Positions 7,943-55,886 of a stretch of DNA of 64,000 nucleotides are shown here, one piece after another. Made by a program: the position numbers and the translations under genes. The stretch lies in the IMG/VR virus record IMGVR_UViG_3300033075_001761. One strand, written 5' to 3'. The notes beneath the pieces are model-generated. The model was not told the DNA's origin, ran no database searches, and saw nothing but the letters and a program-made list of their open reading frames with translations. Source of the stretch: a virus. Taxonomy: Duplodnaviria > Heunggongvirae > Uroviricota > Caudoviricetes. How positions within the stretch are numbered: the stretch's first letter is position 1; every line of letters starts with the position of its first letter.

Positions 7943-9079
7943 ATGGCTTTAGTTGAGTTTGATAACCAATCGGCATCAGGCATTGCCACTCCTGGTTCTG
8001 GTTATACTTCTGTGTTTGTTGATGCATCCGATAAAAAATTAAAAACAAAAGATGATACAGGAGCCGTTACTGATTATTCGGCGCCAGGAAATTCAATTAC
8101 GCAATTGACTGGAGAAGTGACTGCTGGACCTGGGCCTGGTTCTGTTGCTGCTACAGTTTCAAATGCGGCTGTAATCGGTAAAGTCCTGACTGGATATACT
8201 GTTCTCTCAGGAAACGTCTCTGCTACGGATACAATCTTGCAAGCGATTGGAAAGCTTTCTACGCGATCTGGAAACGCCATGTACGGAGCAGGAACGGATG
8301 GCGACCAAACAATCACAGTAGACACAACACTTGTAAAAGACATGTATTACAACAATCTTACAATTAATGCTGGAGCTACTGTATTTACAGCAGGGTACAG
8401 AATTACTGTATACGGAACGTTAACACTTCCTTCTGGCGCATTTATTAAGCGCGAAGGAAATAATGGGGTTCTAAGCGTTGCGGGAGCTGCACAAGCTGCT
8501 GGCACTCTTCCTGGATTTGTGGCTGGCGGAGCTGGGCAAACGGGCGCAGGAACCGCTGGTACGGCGGTTTCAAACGCATTTGGAGGTTCTGGAGGCGCAG
8601 GAGGAGCTGGCGTATCTGGAGGTGGAGGCGCTGGAGTTGCGACTGTTCCTGCCGCTACAGTCGGCGGAATTGATATTGCTTACAACGTGAATTTCGCTTC
8701 TGTGATGCAAGTTCTACCAGGAACTCTTGGAACTGGAGCTGGCGGAGGAGGCGGAGGAGGCGGAGCTGGCGTAGGATTCCCTGGAGGCGGAGGAGGAAGC
8801 GCAGGTGGCGTTGTTGTTATTCGTGCCCGTAGCATTGCCGGAGCTGGGACTGTTTCTGTTATCGGCGGAAACGGAGGCGCTGGCACGAGCGGAGGCGGAA
8901 ATACAGGAGGAGGCGGAGGAGGCGGAGGAGGAGTGATTGTTGTTATTAGCGACAACGACCCTTTGTTGACTACTACAATTACCTTCACTGTAACGGGAGG
9001 AATTGGCGGACCTGGAGGAGCTTCTGGTGCTTCTGGAGCAAATGGAGCCAATGGACGTACATTCTTCTTGAGGCCGTAA
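7943..9079 (+). CDS. glycine-rich tail fibre or spike-like protein
   Basis: Conserved fibre-like N-terminus (TPGSGYTSVFVDASDKKLKTKDDTGAV). The C-terminal half is G-rich runs alternating with short beta-strand segments (VVVIRARSI, VIVVISDND), suggesting a beta-helix. Confidence 0.55.
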   Translation: MALVEFDNQSASGIATPGSGYTSVFVDASDKKLKTKDDTGAVTDYSAPGNSITQLTGEVTAGPGPGSVAATVSNAAVIGKVLTGYTVLSGNVSATDTILQAIGKLSTRSGNAMYGAGTDGDQTITVDTTLVKDMYYNNLTINAGATVFTAGYRITVYGTLTLPSGAFIKREGNNGVLSVAGAAQAAGTLPGFVAGGAGQTGAGTAGTAVSNAFGGSGGAGGAGVSGGGGAGVATVPAATVGGIDIAYNVNFASVMQVLPGTLGTGAGGGGGGGGAGVGFPGGGGGSAGGVVVIRARSIAGAGTVSVIGGNGGAGTSGGGNTGGGGGGGGGVIVVISDNDPLLTTTITFTVTGGIGGPGGASGASGANGANGRTFFLRP

Positions 9080-11554: not shown

Positions 11555-11665
11555 TTCAAGCTTTTAGTTTGAATGGAGTTTCTTTTATTTGACTTTTAGT
11601 TTTTATGGAATTTTTTTAGTTTGATTTTAGTTTTTATGGAATTTTTTTATTTGGATTTTATCTTG
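11555..11665. repeat. tandem ~30-bp direct repeats (TTGA(C)TTTTAGTTTTTATGGAATTTTTTTA), iteron-like
   Basis: Two near-identical copies at 11589-11618 and 11621-11649, plus degenerate flanking copies. AT-rich. Confidence 0.6.
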
Positions 11666-42652: not shown

Positions 42653-42894
42653 TAAACAATAAAAAATCAGTAATTCATTATTCATTAAATGAGCCGAATA
42701 AAAAAAAGAAACAAAATATTTGGCCAATCACAGCATGTGGGGTTTGGATAAATAAAACAGAACTAACAATAAATAAAAAAGAATTAAAAAAAGAGCCCGA
42801 AATAAAAGAAATAAAAAAAGAAATAAAAGAAACACATAGAGCAGATATGGTCACATGTTTGTTTTGCCAAAAATTAATTAAAGGAATTAAATAA
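42640..42894 (+). CDS. hypothetical Lys-rich protein
   Basis: 84-aa ORF. Confidence 0.35.
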   Translation: MPSVINNKKSVIHYSLNEPNKKKKQNIWPITACGVWINKTELTINKKELKKEPEIKEIKKEIKETHRADMVTCLFCQKLIKGIK

Positions 42895-44156: not shown

Positions 44157-44477
44157 AGACTTTAAAAGAACCCTGTAGGTTATTTCCTTTTTATTTTGGT
44201 CGGTTTTAAACAAATTCAAAAAACACTTGAGTCAATCTTGTTTGTTTGTGTATACGAAATTCACATAAGAACAAAGGCTTTTTAGATATGAGCTTGCTTG
44301 AAAAAGAACGAATTGGAGAGCCGAAAAGTTTGCTTATAGAAGCCGGGATGGTTTTGTCCAAAATTAGAATGCTTGGGTACAAGCAAGATCTTGAGGTTCT
44401 CAGTGGATTTTTTTGAAAACAAGGTTATTTTGGAAATCTTTAAAAAAAATATGAGCAAATGCGTAAGGAGTGTGGTC

Positions 44478-44909
44478 ATGAATGAAACCAGTGATTTAAA
44501 GAATCCTTTAAAAGAAGGATCTTTTTATGAAACAAGAGGTGGGTTCAAAGCCAAATGTGTTCATATATTTGAGAATGGAGAGGCTTTGATGGTTGATTTT
44601 CCTTCTTTAAATACGCTTGTTATTGGAGCGACAAATTTCTGGAAAGTTCGTACGCATGGAAGAATGAGAGATGATATTTTTAATAATTCATACGACATTG
44701 TTTCTGAGTGGCACGAAATGGTGATGGTAGCTCCCGCGCTAGTAGCGTGTGTAAGCGCACAAGGATCAGTTAAAGGATCAATTCCGTATCAAACAGAGTA
44801 TTTCTACTCTTCAAAAGAAGAGGCTGAAGATGCATGCGCGAAGAACGGGAACAAATTGATCAATTGGCCAGCATATGAGTCAAATTGGCCAAAAATAAGA
44901 AAAGAATAG
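44478..44909 (+). CDS. hypothetical protein
   Basis: ATG at 44478 with SD AAGGAGtgtggtcATG. Track ORF 44373. Confidence 0.4.
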   Translation: MNETSDLKNPLKEGSFYETRGGFKAKCVHIFENGEALMVDFPSLNTLVIGATNFWKVRTHGRMRDDIFNNSYDIVSEWHEMVMVAPALVACVSAQGSVKGSIPYQTEYFYSSKEEAEDACAKNGNKLINWPAYESNWPKIRKE

Positions 44910-45211
44910 TGCGGTTAAAAATGATCAAATCAATAAATGACAATGATGCAATGTATCTTGTTATACCTGGATACGTTGTTTCAAAGTTTGACAAGCAAAA
45001 GCATAGAGTTGGAATTGGACAATTGGTTAAATTGTATGGAATTAAAAGAGGGGAATATGTCACATCGATGATAGGCATCAATAAAAAAATGCCTATATTA
45101 TCTCCTAGAAAAGACGGTAGTTATCGTTGTAAGCGTTGCGGATGTCCAAATCCAACTAACATGAATCATAGATGTGACGATGACAGAGGAGTGTTTGGCT
45201 ATGAATACTGA
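44885..45211 (+). CDS. hypothetical protein with a C-terminal Cys cluster
   Basis: 108-aa ORF with CKRCGCPNPTNMNHRC. Confidence 0.4.
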   Translation: MAKNKKRIVRLKMIKSINDNDAMYLVIPGYVVSKFDKQKHRVGIGQLVKLYGIKRGEYVTSMIGINKKMPILSPRKDGSYRCKRCGCPNPTNMNHRCDDDRGVFGYEY

Positions 45212-45268
45212 ACCAAAGAATTGTATTGGACTTTTGTAGAAGAATTATTTTTAAACAAAGAGGGATTT

Positions 45269-45610
45269 ATGGATCTTGATCAACTTACACTCGGGCAGCT
45301 TAAGCAAATTTCGTCTTTAAACATTGGAAGATCAAAAGCAGATCATCCATTTAAAATAGGAAGATCATACATGATACGAACTGTCACGATGAGCAACGTT
45401 GGCGAAGTTGTGGCCGTCGTGGGTGATTTCCTCGTTCTTAAGAATTGTGCTTGGATTGCCGATTCTGGGCGCTTTTGTGACTTCTTGAAAGATGGAGCTG
45501 TTAGCATTGCGTGCGAAATTGAGCCAATGCTTGGGGAGGTTTTCGTAAACATGAAATCGATTATAGACGTGAGCGAATGGATACACGGCCCTCTTTTGGA
45601 TCAAAAATGA
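45269..45610 (+). CDS. hypothetical protein (N-terminus MDLDQLTLGQLKQ..., duplicated downstream of the microsatellite)
   Basis: ATG at 45269 with an AGAGGGA SD. Track ORF 45221. Confidence 0.4.
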   Translation: MDLDQLTLGQLKQISSLNIGRSKADHPFKIGRSYMIRTVTMSNVGEVVAVVGDFLVLKNCAWIADSGRFCDFLKDGAVSIACEIEPMLGEVFVNMKSIIDVSEWIHGPLLDQK

Positions 45611-45629
45611 TATTAATAAACAACATTAA

Positions 45630-45800
45630 TAGCAAGAGCGGGAGCAAGAGCAGGAGCTGGAGCAGGAGCAGGAGCAGGAGCAGGAGCTGGAGCTGGAGCT
45701 GGAGCTGGAGCGGGAGCAAGAGCGGGAGCAAGAGCAGGAGCTGGAGCAGGAGCAGGAGCAGGAGCTGGAGCAGGAGCTGGATCGGAAGCAGGAGCAGGAG
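45630..45800. repeat. hexanucleotide microsatellite (GCAGGA/GCTGGA/GCGGGA)n, about 28 units
   Basis: Read directly. All six frames are open across it (SR/SW, GA, QE/LE on the + strand and PA on the - strand). Only the SR/SW + frame (45577) and the PA - frame have in-frame start codons. Confidence 0.7.
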
Positions 45801-45900
45801 GACATTGATCAACTGACACTAGGGCAAGTTAAGCTTTGGCAATGACAGTGGAGATTTTTATTAACATGCTTCCTAAAGATCTCTCCGAAGAAGAATTCCG

Positions 45901-46110
45901 TTGATCGCTAACGTCGAAGAACTCTCAGCGTTCATCTCTAAACTCGTAAGACACTACACACTCTGTGAGTCCTATACTTCGCGACTACGCGTAGAGCTCT
46001 TGCGTGAACTCTCATTTGATGGTCAACTCTCAACGCTGCAAGTCGAAATGCTTGTGCGCAAACAACGTCGCATCGCGCAAAGCGTGAAGTGGATAACGCC
46101 TCACGCTTAA
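45901..46110 (+). CDS. hypothetical protein inside a GC/CpG-rich island
   Basis: 69-aa ORF. Its codon usage (CGC, GCG, CTC) is unlike the rest of the window. Confidence 0.3.
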   Translation: MIANVEELSAFISKLVRHYTLCESYTSRLRVELLRELSFDGQLSTLQVEMLVRKQRRIAQSVKWITPHA

Positions 46111-46159
46111 ACACTTATAGTAGATAGGATTTAAATATGATCACTCTATTCTGCATCGC

Positions 46160-46360
46160 TTGCACAACTCCCGAGGCGTTCAAGATCCTAGACGCGCAAA
46201 CGTAGAAGCTGCAAAATCTATTTTAGATGGGTTAAATACTTCGTTTCCTTGTAGAGAAAATGCAATGGCAATTACCAAGTTGGATGAGTGTTTGATGTGG
46301 CTTGAAAAAAGAACAAAAGACAGAGAGCAAAGGCAGGTTGAAGGAACTTCAAACGCATGA
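46160..46360 (+). CDS. hypothetical protein
   Basis: 66-aa ORF straddling the edge of the GC-rich island. Confidence 0.3.
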
Positions 46361-46566
46361 AGGCAGGGCCATGCCTTTATTGTAAAAGTGTAGACAAGAT
46401 TGTTTTTGATACTTTTTATGAGCACTGTGTTCGTACGGGCGGATTAAAATATTTGGTTGTCATAAAGTGCAATCAGTGTGGCATGTGTGGCCCACATGCT
46501 AAAACAGAAGAACAAGCAATAAAAAGATGGAACTTGTTATCAGAGATGATTTCTAATAAAAAATAG
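46357..46566 (+). CDS. Lar-family restriction-alleviation (anti-restriction) zinc-ribbon protein
   Basis: PCLYCKS...[23 protein letters not shown] parallels Lar-family proteins (PCPFCG ... C..CG..GP....E.AI..WN). Confidence 0.5.
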
Positions 46567-46609
46567 TTCGATAAAAATTCTAGGAATTAATTCAGAAAGA
46601 GACAGTTAT

Positions 46610-46900
46610 ATGAGAGTTTTTGCTTTAATGTGGAGTGATATGGAAGGCAGAAGCTCTCTTAAAGGGATTTATTCGAGCAGAAAAAATGTACTGATGGCCA
46701 TATCAAAATGGAGTGTTAGAGATGGATTTTATACTTTAGAGTATGTTGTTGATTACGGCCTTTATCCAAAGGATCTTACAAATTCAGAATCAGCCCTTAG
46801 GTCAATCGCTTCTAATCCTGATTTAAATCCAAGCTTTGATGTTGCAAGAAAGATCGCAAACAAGGCAATTAAAGATGATTGGAGTGAAACAGATGAATAA
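46610..46900 (+). CDS. hypothetical protein
   Basis: 96-aa ORF. Confidence 0.4.
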   Translation: MRVFALMWSDMEGRSSLKGIYSSRKNVLMAISKWSVRDGFYTLEYVVDYGLYPKDLTNSESALRSIASNPDLNPSFDVARKIANKAIKDDWSETDE

Positions 46901-53463: not shown

Positions 53464-54552
53464 TCAATGGAAATCAGAAGGATCTTTTAAAAGATAGATA
53501 TCAGAGATAGCTTTTAAAACTTTTCTGCCAGTTATACATGTTTCTTCTTTGACTGGTTTTACAACAATTCCTTCTCTGACTTTTTGCTTACCAATAAAGC
53601 TATCTCCATCTCTCATGCTCATAATCATTTTGTGATTGTATGGTCCTACGTACATTTCAGGTACTCTTTCAAATCCTCGCTTATCACACCATTCCTTAAA
53701 TTCTTTATGGCTAAGGTACTTTCCATTGATTTGTACATCATAAAGATAGAGGGCGTGTTCTCCTATAGGAAGGCCGTACGAGTATCCTTTTTGAATTCCG
53801 GGCCCTACAACCTCTCCATAAATGGCTTCTCCATAGGTTAAGCGTTCTTTAATTAGATATTTATCACAAATCTTTTTGTACAGATTTTCACCTTCTGAAT
53901 GTTGAAGTTGTACATTTCTTGAGCCGTAAACAAATTCATATTCTTTCCAAAGACCAATAATTTTAAGAAAAAAACGGATTACTTTGGGCCAAAAAGTTGA
54001 AACATCTTTTTTAGACCAACCTGCTCGATAGGAAGTTCCGTGTAATTTTTCGCTTACGTAGACCTGTTGGTTTTCTTGGAATAAGTTTACGTAGTTTTTT
54101 ATATTTTCAATGTCTGTATATTTCTTGAAGTTTGAATTGTCTAATCGCTTAGACTTTTTAACGCTTGTTATTGCGCTTTGATAGTCAGGAAGAGGTGGTT
54201 CGTACTTTGTTATTTTAAGTTCTTTTGTAAGATCTGTTCCTTCTGGTCTTTCTTTAATTCCAAGCACATCAAATCCTGCAAGCATTCCTTGAGAGATGGC
54301 ACCTCGGATTTTGATAGATTTGACCCTTCCTTTTTGAAGAGTGATTTTGCTTCCTTCTGGGAACAGTTTATTCTCAATAGATTCGGGAAGTACAGAATCA
54401 ATAGGAATGTAAACAGCCAGGTCGCCTTCTTTGTATATGTATTTTCTAGAGACTACGTTCCATCCATTGATTGTGATCAGATCCAAAGAATCTGCGTTTG
54501 GATGTTTTTCTACGGACTGAATCCTTACAACTTCTACTTTTAGCGTGCTCAC
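53464..54552 (-). CDS. ATP-dependent RNA ligase (Rnl2-like nucleotidyltransferase with an N-terminal tRNA-binding-type OB domain)
   Basis: Minus strand. N-terminal VEVVRIQSVEKHPNADSLDLITIN (Myf/EMAP-like OB). Motif I EKLHGTS (KxHG as in T4 Rnl2), motif IV REGIVVKP. Confidence 0.55.
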   Translation of the reverse strand: MSTLKVEVVRIQSVEKHPNADSLDLITINGWNVVSRKYIYKEGDLAVYIPIDSVLPESIENKLFPEGSKITLQKGRVKSIKIRGAISQGMLAGFDVLGIKERPEGTDLTKELKITKYEPPLPDYQSAITSVKKSKRLDNSNFKKYTDIENIKNYVNLFQENQQVYVSEKLHGTSYRAGWSKKDVSTFWPKVIRFFLKIIGLWKEYEFVYGSRNVQLQHSEGENLYKKICDKYLIKERLTYGEAIYGEVVGPGIQKGYSYGLPIGEHALYLYDVQINGKYLSHKEFKEWCDKRGFERVPEMYVGPYNHKMIMSMRDGDSFIGKQKVREGIVVKPVKEETCITGRKVLKAISDIYLLKDPSDFH

Positions 54553-54632
54553 GGTAGCCTCCTATAAATGAAGGCTTCTTTTCACATATTAGGAAATCCA
54601 TTGGCAAGTCCTAATATTAGTGGGTGGCAATA

Positions 54633-55886
54633 TTATTTACACTTAACAGGAATTCTGATAGTCATTCCATGTTCTGGGTGGACAAGAAAAAGAGCCTGCT
54701 GTGGTTCTTCATAAGAGAAGTTCATACCCGCAGAAAATTCGTCAAAACCTTTACATGAGCCGTTTATTATCAATGAATTAGTCATAATTAGCTGGTGAAA
54801 ATGTCCTATCATCATTACATCAAAAGCTCTATGCAATGCTGATTGGCGTTTAAGTTTTTTGCTCATCCCAAGCATGATCGGAGTGAAGATCCCGGAGATC
54901 CCATTGCCGCCTTTAAATTGGTCTCCGTGAGTTAAAAGGAAAGTTGTATTGGCAACTTTAAAAGTGATGTCTGTGGATTCAGGTATATCAAAGGTGATTC
55001 TTTTGTCTGAAATAAATCTTTTGGCCAAAAGCTGATAAATAAGCCACTCATAGTTTTGCTGAACCCTGTATTTGAACCTAGGCTTTTTATGGATTCGGCC
55101 ATGGTTTCCTACAACGCATGGTACATAGACTTTTCCGAACACATCGGCTAACTCTCCGATGCCATCCCCAATGATTTGAACAGCACTTACGATTGTTTGA
55201 AGGATTGTGGCATCATTTGTTTCGGCCAATTCTTCATGGATGTTTCCAGAAACAATATCTCCGCCAAGAGCCAAAACAATCCCGTTATATTTAAATCCAG
55301 TCATTTTGATTTTAAGGATTTCAATAGTTCTGTTGAAACAGTTTTTAAGCCTCTGAACGCATATGTCGTGATTGTATTCGTTTACGTATTCAATATGTGC
55401 AGGTTCTACAACTTCGTCAAAATGGATGTCAGATAGGAACAGTACAGGTGTATTGGCATGGTTTCCTTTTCCATTTTTGTAATCGAGCCAATCTTTGTCG
55501 TTTTGGAAAGAAACAGATTTTGCTTCATGGATTAGATTTATAAGGCGTTCGTTTGTTGCTTGTTCATGGTGAGCTATTTCTAGTCTGGATTTTAAAGCCT
55601 GGATGTTTTGCCTAAGGACAACAATTTCTCTTTGGAATTTGTTTTCTTCTTGAAAAGAGATTTGTTCGTTCTTTGTAACCCCAGATCCGCCTTTTCTCAT
55701 ATCGATTTGTTCGCCAGATTCTATAGCTTTTTTAATTAGCCTATTTAGAGCTCTTTTCTTTAGCTTAAATTTTAAGCATATTGATTCTACGGTTGGGTAG
55801 TTCTTTTGATCTTTGTAAGCATCAAGAATTTGGGAAAGTTTATAATTCATTTTCATCTTCATCATCCTCCCCAGATATGGAAACAA
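54633..55886 (-). CDS. calcineurin-like metallophosphoesterase
   Basis: LSDIHFD, GGDIVSGN, VGNHG, LTHGDQ and GHFH binuclear-metal motifs. The start may be the internal ATG at 55847. Confidence 0.6.
   Translation of the reverse strand: MFPYLGRMMKMKMNYKLSQILDAYKDQKNYPTVESICLKFKLKKRALNRLIKKAIESGEQIDMRKGGSGVTKNEQISFQEENKFQREIVVLRQNIQALKSRLEIAHHEQATNERLINLIHEAKSVSFQNDKDWLDYKNGKGNHANTPVLFLSDIHFDEVVEPAHIEYVNEYNHDICVQRLKNCFNRTIEILKIKMTGFKYNGIVLALGGDIVSGNIHEELAETNDATILQTIVSAVQIIGDGIGELADVFGKVYVPCVVGNHGRIHKKPRFKYRVQQNYEWLIYQLLAKRFISDKRITFDIPESTDITFKVANTTFLLTHGDQFKGGNGISGIFTPIMLGMSKKLKRQSALHRAFDVMMIGHFHQLIMTNSLIINGSCKGFDEFSAGMNFSYEEPQQALFLVHPEHGMTIRIPVKCK

Follow-up and report, generated by a model that had tools for sequence, protein, structure and literature searches.

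We analyzed a stretch of 64,000 nucleotides (nt), here called the window, from the Caudoviricetes virus record IMGVR_UViG_3300033075_001761. Our subject is a locus on its + strand at which a small gene, X, is followed by an array of hexanucleotide units. We propose that this array is the coding body of a second small gene, Y, which is read in a Ser-Xaa frame and would be translationally coupled to X through an ATGA overlap. We consider this proposal likely on the basis of the sequence comparisons below, and we hold the overall genetic architecture (the X-Y module, the coding frame, and the mode of array evolution) with high confidence. The locus comprises the following features:

45260-45264, + strand: putative Shine-Dalgarno-like GAGGG, 4 nt 5′ of the gene X ATG, as read from the sequence
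45269-45610, + strand: gene X, 113 amino acids (aa), MDLDQLTLGQLKQ..., with a helix motif at the N terminus, then a variable linker and a predicted Sm/LSm-like beta-barrel
45607-45610, + strand: ATGA, in which the Y start codon overlaps the X stop codon
45607-45816, + strand: gene Y, 69 aa, 8.1 kDa, isoelectric point (pI) 12.0, of the form MILINNIN + (S-[R/W/K/G])n + RRTLIN*
45631-45800, + strand: hexamer array, 28 units AGC-NGG (a Ser codon and an Arg, Trp, Gly, or Lys codon), entirely within Y
45271-45305, + strand: direct repeat copy 1, the start-codon G and X codons 2-12 (D L D Q L T L G Q L K)
45800-45834, + strand: direct repeat copy 2, an apparent 11-codon vestige of X (D I D Q L T L G Q V K) that lacks a start codon

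The array had been recorded in a preliminary description of this DNA as a run of about 28 GCAGGA/GCTGGA units that is open in all six frames, and both statements were borne out. Tandem Repeats Finder returned the same array as the only one of period 6 that it reported (28.3 copies, 83% matches, consensus AGCAGG). On the + strand, the frames open over it are 45523-45816 (Ser-Arg/Trp, S-R/W), 45620-45808 (Ala-Gly, A-G), and 45633-45845 (Gln/Leu-Glu, Q/L-E), and the open reading frames (ORFs) on the - strand are 45561-45812, 45613-45819, and 45626-45805. ATG starts had been claimed for the S-R/W frame and the Pro-Ala (P-A)-rich - strand frame alone. The S-R/W frame does have one, but the P-A frame starts with GTG (45819), and the - strand frame with an ATG is the C/S-rich one. 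The start of the S-R/W frame had also been placed at 45577; the relevant ATG is that at 45607, which overlaps the X stop.

We drew on 82 related loci in all, including 80 IMG/VR loci with an X homolog at 40-50% aa identity. A period-6 array begins 20-65 nt 3′ of X in nearly all of the 82, an 83% relative (L002) and GenBank record MW202573 among them. We scored the frames in 76 non-redundant phage loci. The Ser-Xaa frame has an ATG before the array in 70 of the 76 and a start of any kind in 75, and it stops a median of 3 nt past the array (interquartile range 1-6). For the Gly-x frame, the corresponding values are 19 of 76, 48 of 76, and 28 nt, and for the third frame 9 of 76, 32 of 76, and 43.5 nt. 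On the - strand, the P-x frame is interrupted by stops (TGA) in TCA-type arrays. The frame test thus points to the S-R/S-W frame, one of those that the preliminary description had listed with an ATG start, as the coding frame. Only the Ser-Xaa frame is consistently a gene across the 76 loci, and we read the array as neither a spacer nor a decaying gene. The earlier suggestion of a gene being remodeled by repeat expansion does not fit a Y body that has been conserved for long and is present at nearly all of the 82 loci.

Y is a separate ORF in all loci, and no X-Y fusion protein was found among the best 150 family representatives. Its start lies at -1 (ATGA) or +2 (TAATG) relative to the X stop in 56 of the 78 listed X-Y pairs, and a Shine-Dalgarno-like motif precedes the Y ATG in seven of the nine loci where the X-Y gap is at least 13 nt. 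L002 has the ATGA overlap of the window together with an AGCAGG array. The 11-aa leader has the consensus M-N-[AQ]-A-I-L-R-x-G-[FY]-D, and its codons show coding-type variation (entropy of 0.93 bits at the first codon position, 0.68 at the second, and 1.57 at the third), with all six Arg and all four Gly codons in use for its conserved R and G. The window Y reads MILINNINSKSGSKSRSW...SRSRRTLIN*, and in MW202573 the gene is annotated as a hypothetical protein of 43 aa (MNAAIIRAGLDASWSWSWSWSRSRSW...). The median length of complete Y proteins is 71 aa (range 26-119), and their net charge has a median of +10; by residue, S accounts for 39%, R for 15%, G for 14%, and W for 12%. With a period of 6 inside an ORF that has both a start and a stop, Y has the properties of an in-frame coding tandem repeat. 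Its only NCBIfam matches were very weak ones to staphylococcal serine-aspartate (SD)-repeat regions (E 0.004-0.01, far under the cut-offs).

X, the partner of Y, has 323 word-indexed homologs of ~110 aa, and a full hidden Markov model scan (E ≤ 1e-3) gave a family of 2,033 clusters at 50% identity, in which the N-terminal MNIDxLTLGQIKEI is among the best-conserved parts. A single X protein used as a query found no close relatives in IMG/VR or JGI metagenome contigs, whereas an alignment-based scan succeeded. X has no match in Pfam (E ≤ 0.01), PHROG, or NCBIfam, its family profile has no sequence match among PDB chains, and neither Y nor the products of the alternative frames gave a meaningful match in Pfam, PHROG, and NCBIfam scans. 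Among 50,697 GenBank phage records, X is present in one, MW202573, a metagenome-assembled genome (MAG), and in no cultured phage. In a search for a host among 185,579 species genomes, it is found on 23 MAG contigs only, assigned by binning to many phyla and mostly of ~33-48 kb (1.4-356 kb), and many of these look like mis-binned phage contigs.

A confident AlphaFold2 model of X built on the family alignment (predicted local distance difference test score 87.5, predicted template modeling score 0.72) has a short N-terminal helix, which corresponds to the conserved motif. A variable linker modeled at low confidence follows, and then a beta-barrel. When the model was compared with the PDB by Foldseek, Sm/LSm chains filled the top of the list. 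The model also has the arrangement of the Sm fold, an N-terminal helix and then a strongly bent five-stranded beta-barrel, and X is accordingly predicted to have an Sm/LSm-like fold. Against viral models, the best matches were uncharacterized phage proteins, some labeled DUF6948, and X has no sequence match to the DUF6948 family. We picture X as a small Sm/LSm-fold barrel that would probably form rings, with the N-terminal helix tethered to it. Tandem X-X fusions with two barrels per chain (P0123, P0136, and P0208) are compatible with oligomer formation, without proving oligomers. In P0161, the N-terminal LT.G.LKEI motif occurs twice within a single protein, so the motif that is doubled in the window is duplication-prone elsewhere too.

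To understand how the array evolves, we compared its units among phages. The nucleotide unit differs by phage (AGCNGG, TCGNGG, TCTNGG, or TCANGG), and each version is a Ser codon plus NGG; hence, the amino-acid pattern is kept while the nucleotide unit varies between relatives. Among the Ser codons, TCG predominates in 34 arrays, AGC in 18, TCT in 13, and TCA in 8, and within an array the codon is uniform (97% share). Of 1,721 units, 90% have GGG, TGG, AGG, or CGG as the Xaa codon, and the Xaa residue is R in 35%, G in 30%, and W in 27%; in 45 of 54 arrays, none of these three residues falls below 10%. Within-array entropy at unit positions 1-6 is 0.01, 0.01, 0.13, 1.45, 0.29, and 0.22 bits over 74 arrays, and 0, 0, 0, 1.32, 0.61, and 0 bits in the window array. 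Trp has a single codon, TGG, and its first-position neighbors are exactly CGG, AGG, and GGG.

Near-identical modules show how fast the array turns over. In the tandem modules of L029, the X genes are identical (336/336) and so is the upstream DNA, while the arrays measure 249 and 267 nt and differ in unit order. This is in keeping with the slippage hotspot that the preliminary description had foreseen. L050 and L052 have very different arrays next to X genes that match at 329 of 330 positions, and all length variants observed are in frame. As far as the sequences tell, the array changes by gaining, losing, and rearranging whole 6-nt units in frame, far faster than its flanks, while its composition stays constant, with Ser at every second residue and R, G, and W in roughly equal shares. 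We suggest that copying, loss, and rearrangement of units without a change of frame (concerted evolution) would keep five positions homogeneous, and that selection maintains the mix of Arg, Gly, and Trp. We also weighed a diversity-generating retroelement as the source of the hypervariable base. Against it, this base is the sole one to vary, though the arrays hold other adenines (AGC units); no search aimed at a template repeat or a reverse transcriptase was made.

Several observations weigh against our interpretation. The window leader, MILINNIN, deviates from the family consensus, and a strong Shine-Dalgarno sequence is absent before the window Y ATG. Y genes lie upstream of X in L046, L056, and L066, and no Y was found in L028. 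Synonymous variation in the arrays is low (0.13 bits at the Ser wobble position and 0.22 bits at NGG position 3), and the first base of NGG is near saturation at 1.45 bits. Simple protein-level purifying selection does not predict this combination; the entropy pattern needs either concerted evolution plus selection for the R/G/W mix, or a further constraint on the nucleotides themselves (GG every 6 nt). As to X, the basis of its Sm assignment is predicted structure only, and 30 family members compared with the Pfam LSM/Hfq families gave no match at E ≤ 1.

The second copy of the X N terminus bears on the history of the locus. The preliminary description had reported a 30-bp direct repeat flanking the array. 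The repeat is real and non-random: it spans 35 nt at 83% identity, and its 23-nt core (≤3 mismatches) has two sites only, with 0.00 expected from 100 shuffles. It does not abut the array on both sides, however; the left copy lies 326 nt upstream, at the start of X, and the right copy alone abuts the array. Over X codons 2-12, five codons are identical, four differ synonymously at the third position, and two differ at the first position (L>I and L>V), and the similarity stops at codon 13. The differences are thus synonymous or conservative, as had been stated, but the selection that was read into them is suggestive and not significant, with 4 of the 6 differences at third positions having a chance p of ~0.10 by a binomial estimate. 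Copy 2 has GAG in place of ATG and continues with L W Q to a stop at 45843-45845. Its first 17 nt (45800-45816) are at the same time the 3′ end of Y in another frame, comprising the last five sense codons (one of them partly) and the TGA at 45814-45816, and the Y tail there is R R T L I N. X codons 2-12 alone are present, at 45801-45833: a six-frame profile search and blastn-short found no other parts of X downstream, and Tandem Repeats Finder found no second period-6 array downstream of the vestige.

From its sequence, copy 2 is best described as a 5′ vestige left by another X gene. What it matches is the N-terminal motif that the X family conserves most, and the earlier claim that it was once coding is upheld to this extent. 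Because relatives carry tandem X-Y-X-Y modules (L012, L029, and L048), in which a second X follows the first Y, the simplest history is one of duplication or recombination. Such an event would have placed a second X behind the array, possibly with its junction at a GG(A) microhomology (...AGCAGGAGG with ATGGAY), and the rest of the copy would then have been lost; neither a second X body nor a second array was found downstream. The 17% divergence and the synonymous bias (p ~0.1) suggest that the second copy was once a functional paralog or came from a related phage. The orphan motif is found in this phage only among 106 loci (L107 is the same phage from another sample).

In the wider collection, X and Y keep no fixed company. 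No conserved gene cluster surrounds X-Y across 58 loci, and the neighbor proteins that we scanned against PHROGs, ten picked by eye, included SSB, a RecE-like exonuclease, Erf, DNA methyltransferases, an HNH endonuclease, PAPS reductase, and polynucleotide kinase. X-Y is an autonomous two-gene module and recurs in the early/DNA-metabolism region of many unrelated uncultured phages, that of the window included. Y is multiplied in some of them: L024 and L050/L052 have two copies, L056 has four, and L026 has six. The multiple Y genes lie at 2992-3852 in L056, 2924-5009 in L026, 4213-4724 in L024, and 2755-3180 in L050; each tandem copy has its own ATG and leader, and the arrays differ from copy to copy. 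Acidic Gly-Tyr/Gly-Asp/Gly-Ser repeat peptides, encoded by further period-6 arrays, adjoin basic Y genes (L026 3723-3974, L044 973-1248, L048 1-153 and 895-1094, L076 5374-5697, and L025 1-168), and one ORF of L026 fuses an acidic GD/GY run with an SR run. These adjoining, oppositely charged repeat peptides could be partners. Long tandem repeats of 15 nt also occur near X (L007 1265-3071, L041 3119-3340, L059 6604-6955, and L042 14-235; for example, GCTGATTTATCTAAT) and look like genes for pentapeptide-repeat proteins.

If the array did not encode Y, it could be a non-coding microsatellite or spacer born of replication slippage, whose ORFs are accidents of a stop-free repeat. The six open frames and the breaking of assemblies within the array would fit, as would scarce synonymous variation, which recent slippage products share. 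Yet an accident of this kind would not keep its place after an X of only 40-50% identity, give one frame alone a start in 75 of 76 loci, a coding-type leader, and a stop right behind the array, or preserve Ser by way of both AGY and TCN codon families, and we find this explanation scarcely tenable. It is also very improbable that another frame is the functional one, either Gly-x, which shares the phase of X and could be entered through readthrough or frameshifting, or Pro-Ala on the - strand. The Gly-x frame (Ala-Gly in the window and Gly-Arg, Gly-Leu, or Gly-Gln/His elsewhere) coincides with the reading frame of X at 62 of 76 loci, and changes at the variable base N are silent in it. Its product would be an Sm protein with a GR/GA tail, by analogy with the RG-rich tails that eukaryotic SmD1, SmD3, and LSm4 carry; the P-A frame, for its part, has its GTG in the window. 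However, TGA, TAA, and TAA separate X from the A-G frame of the window, which has no start. Across the 76 loci, few Gly-x frames have an ATG, they overrun the array, and their residue varies (A, R, L, or Q/H), and the best 150 representatives hold no X-tail fusion. The - strand P-x frame, closed by TGA in TCA-type arrays, has no conserved start. The preliminary description had favored a third possibility, present or recent translation of DxDQLTLGQxK at both ends of the repeat, whether as a remodeled gene, a switch, or a duplicated recognition peptide. In its favor, the copies differ mainly synonymously, the open Q/L-E frame runs on in phase into the right copy, and P0161 has the motif twice. 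But the Q/L-E frame has no ATG, GTG, or TTG, and in 19 of 76 relatives it meets stops within the array. Because it lacks a start and begins after two stop codons (TAA and TAG), its being in phase with the vestige is most simply a one-in-three coincidence. A 6-nt unit preserves the frame and cannot switch it, which disposes of the phase-variable or frameshift-prone locus that had been proposed. A recognition peptide is hard to reconcile with an orphan copy that is unique among the 106 loci, that lacks a start codon and the rest of X, and whose 5′ 17 nt are the end of Y. This reading is already largely refuted and keeps only a slim chance; a peptide containing QEQEDIDQLTLGQVK would revive it.

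Two further explanations accept some of these signatures and assign the array another role. Y could be the precursor of a ribosomally synthesized and post-translationally modified peptide (RiPP), with a leader and a Ser-rich core, and X the partner that binds the leader. The leader-plus-core layout, Ser at every second position, a conserved small partner that is tightly coupled, and the tandem Y copies of several phages are all consistent with this idea. Known RiPP leader-recognition elements have a winged-helix fold, however, and the X barrel is Sm-like by model. No conserved modifying enzyme accompanies the module either, the neighbors differing in every phage (58 loci; ten proteins scanned). 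We regard a RiPP role as improbable because no enzyme is co-conserved and X lacks a leader-recognition fold. Alternatively, the nucleotide repeat might act beyond its coding capacity, as a two-tetrad G-quadruplex, a decoy for a protein or RNA, or an array of X-binding sites. GG recurs every 6 nt, unit positions 5-6 are near-invariant within arrays, and the Xaa codon is NGG in 90% of units, yet the leader uses all Arg and Gly codons. Concerted evolution, together with a single Trp codon whose neighbors are CGG, AGG, and GGG, can explain NGG without any role of the DNA itself, and the other three bases always form a Ser codon from either of two unrelated families, which points to the protein level. 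Some added function of the nucleotide repeat is therefore an outside chance, and a purely DNA-level role is unlikely because of the coding signatures.

What the X-Y pair does can be proposed only tentatively. We hypothesize that Y is a disordered polycation (pI ~12) studded with Trp and made in a fixed ratio to X, that its leader probably docks on X, and that the complex would bind or condense nucleic acid, most likely RNA, early in infection. A nucleic-acid-binding X-Y complex with a docked leader is a possibility that we hold to be less likely than not. A bolder and more doubtful idea, offered by analogy, is that the pair is a split phage counterpart of a eukaryotic Sm ring with an RS/RG low-complexity tail that condenses RNA or DNA. 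An X ring would then dock the leaders of several Y chains, whose Arg and Trp "stickers", spaced by Ser and Gly, would drive condensation with RNA or DNA; the product would be a phage-made condensate or RNA sink in early infection. Balancing selection would hold the R/G/W mix even as units change quickly in number and order, and the acidic Gly-Tyr/Gly-Asp repeat genes beside Y in L026, L044, L048, and L076 might supply counter-ion partners.

We compared the pair with known systems that share some of its features. SD repeats form acidic stalks in large cell-wall-anchored adhesins. Like those of the staphylococcal Clf/Sdr proteins, the Ser-Xaa run of Y is encoded by short DNA repeats that stay in frame and differ in number from strain to strain; unlike them, Y is a free-standing basic protein of 26-119 aa with R, G, or W as Xaa, a leader of its own, and an Sm-fold partner (as predicted for X), and there is no homology between the two. 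Eukaryotic Sm/LSm proteins with RG tails and the RS domains of SR proteins resemble the pair in combining an Sm-type barrel, here predicted, with an Arg/Ser/Gly-rich polycation. In those proteins, the runs are in the same polypeptide, whereas the low-complexity part here is a separate polypeptide and Trp-rich (12%); Ser-Arg makes up 35% of array units, about one-third, Trp is as common as Gly, and X has no LSM/Hfq motif. The comparison is thus a working analogy and not a claim of membership. Simple-sequence contingency loci likewise have slippage-prone short repeats whose copy number differs between near-identical genomes, but their changes shift the frame or promoter spacing. At X-Y, neither effect was found, and slippage alters the length and composition of Y and not an on/off state.

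Borg tandem repeats create intrinsically disordered regions and are recently formed, arising independently, according to PMC9879509. The arrays here are similar in evolving fast, in yielding disordered protein regions, and in appearing to be selected as such; they differ in that one dipeptide-repeat gene family occupies a fixed place beside one partner gene. Among phages, the closest description is that of GoF, MotB.1, and Frd.2, small early-region proteins of T4-like phages with a predicted LSm-like fold (PMC12152347). Compared by description only, X is similarly small, lies in an early region, has no informative sequence homology, and is predicted to be LSm-like. No coupled repeat-peptide gene is mentioned in the abstract of PMC12152347, and X is absent from the cultured phages searched. 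Literature searches on the peptide patterns, on hexanucleotide repeats in phages, and on Sm-like proteins of phages found nothing on the X-Y pair. In-frame coding tandem repeats that yield a low-complexity protein are already known, but none of the systems named shares the X-Y architecture, and no description of the gene pair came to light.

For genome annotation, the array means that apparent junk DNA that breaks assemblies can be a conserved gene, within a module of 2,033 clusters that has no Pfam, PHROG, or NCBIfam entry. The codon pattern of Y offers a clean test case for selection on composition, and not on sequence, in a disordered protein. X-Y is a candidate for a new class of early phage proteins with nucleic acids as their target, and the pair is small (113 + 69 aa) and easily synthesized.

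The array is a breakpoint in assembly. Logan contigs of this phage and of L002 end inside it, as do 16 of the 80 IMG/VR loci (contigs of 17-64 kb). The breaks fall at the end of L001, the end of L002, and the start of L107, and the array-terminated loci include L006, L016, L022, L036, L047, L052, L055, L064, L068, L071, L074, and L075. For the L107 fragment, which starts inside the array, the gene caller picked the wrong (Gly-Ala) frame.

The window as a whole has the character of phage DNA, with nearly all long ORFs on the + strand and a steadily positive GC skew. Its large ORFs match a DnaB-like helicase, a DNA helicase, a UvsX-like recombinase, an exonuclease, an endolysin, and glycosyltransferases. 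The X-Y locus sits within a run of small + strand genes, with replication genes on one side and a Lar-like gene on the other. By DNA similarity, 44300-46700 has no match among the 50,697 phage records. A tRNA scan of the window found none, a promoter and terminator scan around the locus gave counts at or below shuffled expectation, and the sole Rfam match in 44800-46800 is at chance level (E 0.28).

Downstream of Y, 540 nt (45817-46356) have no gene call in the Logan annotation of L107. The sole sizeable ORF of this interval is 45901-46110 (TTG start, 69 aa), which has no homologs among 5.8 billion proteins. G+C content appears raised at ~45900-46110, the sole profile value being 0.44 for 45001-46000 with the array included. 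Beyond it, 46357-46566 (+ strand) encodes a 69-aa Cys-rich protein resembling Lar restriction-alleviation proteins (Pfam PF14354 at 24.8 bits, below the 28.6-bit cut-off; PHROG 599, E 4e-5), whose only relative in the protein collection is itself. With these two genes as probes, the right flank of the L002 array was not reached.

Other repeats lie elsewhere in the window. G+C-rich repeats of 9 and 27 nt (GGAGGAGGC and variants) occupy 8581-8933, within ORF 7943-9079 (+ strand, 378 aa), and probably encode a Gly-rich segment; the sole match of this ORF is a weak one to a PHROG of unknown function. A+T-rich tandem repeats at 11562-11660 and 42748-42832 (31 nt x 3.2; 11-21-nt units; G+C 0.28-0.33) are candidate regulatory or origin-like regions. 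Genes on the - strand are few, and two of them, encoding 362 aa and 417 aa (the latter exonuclease-like, PHROG 284), lie at 53464-55886, which is also the only place in the window where the positive GC skew drops locally.

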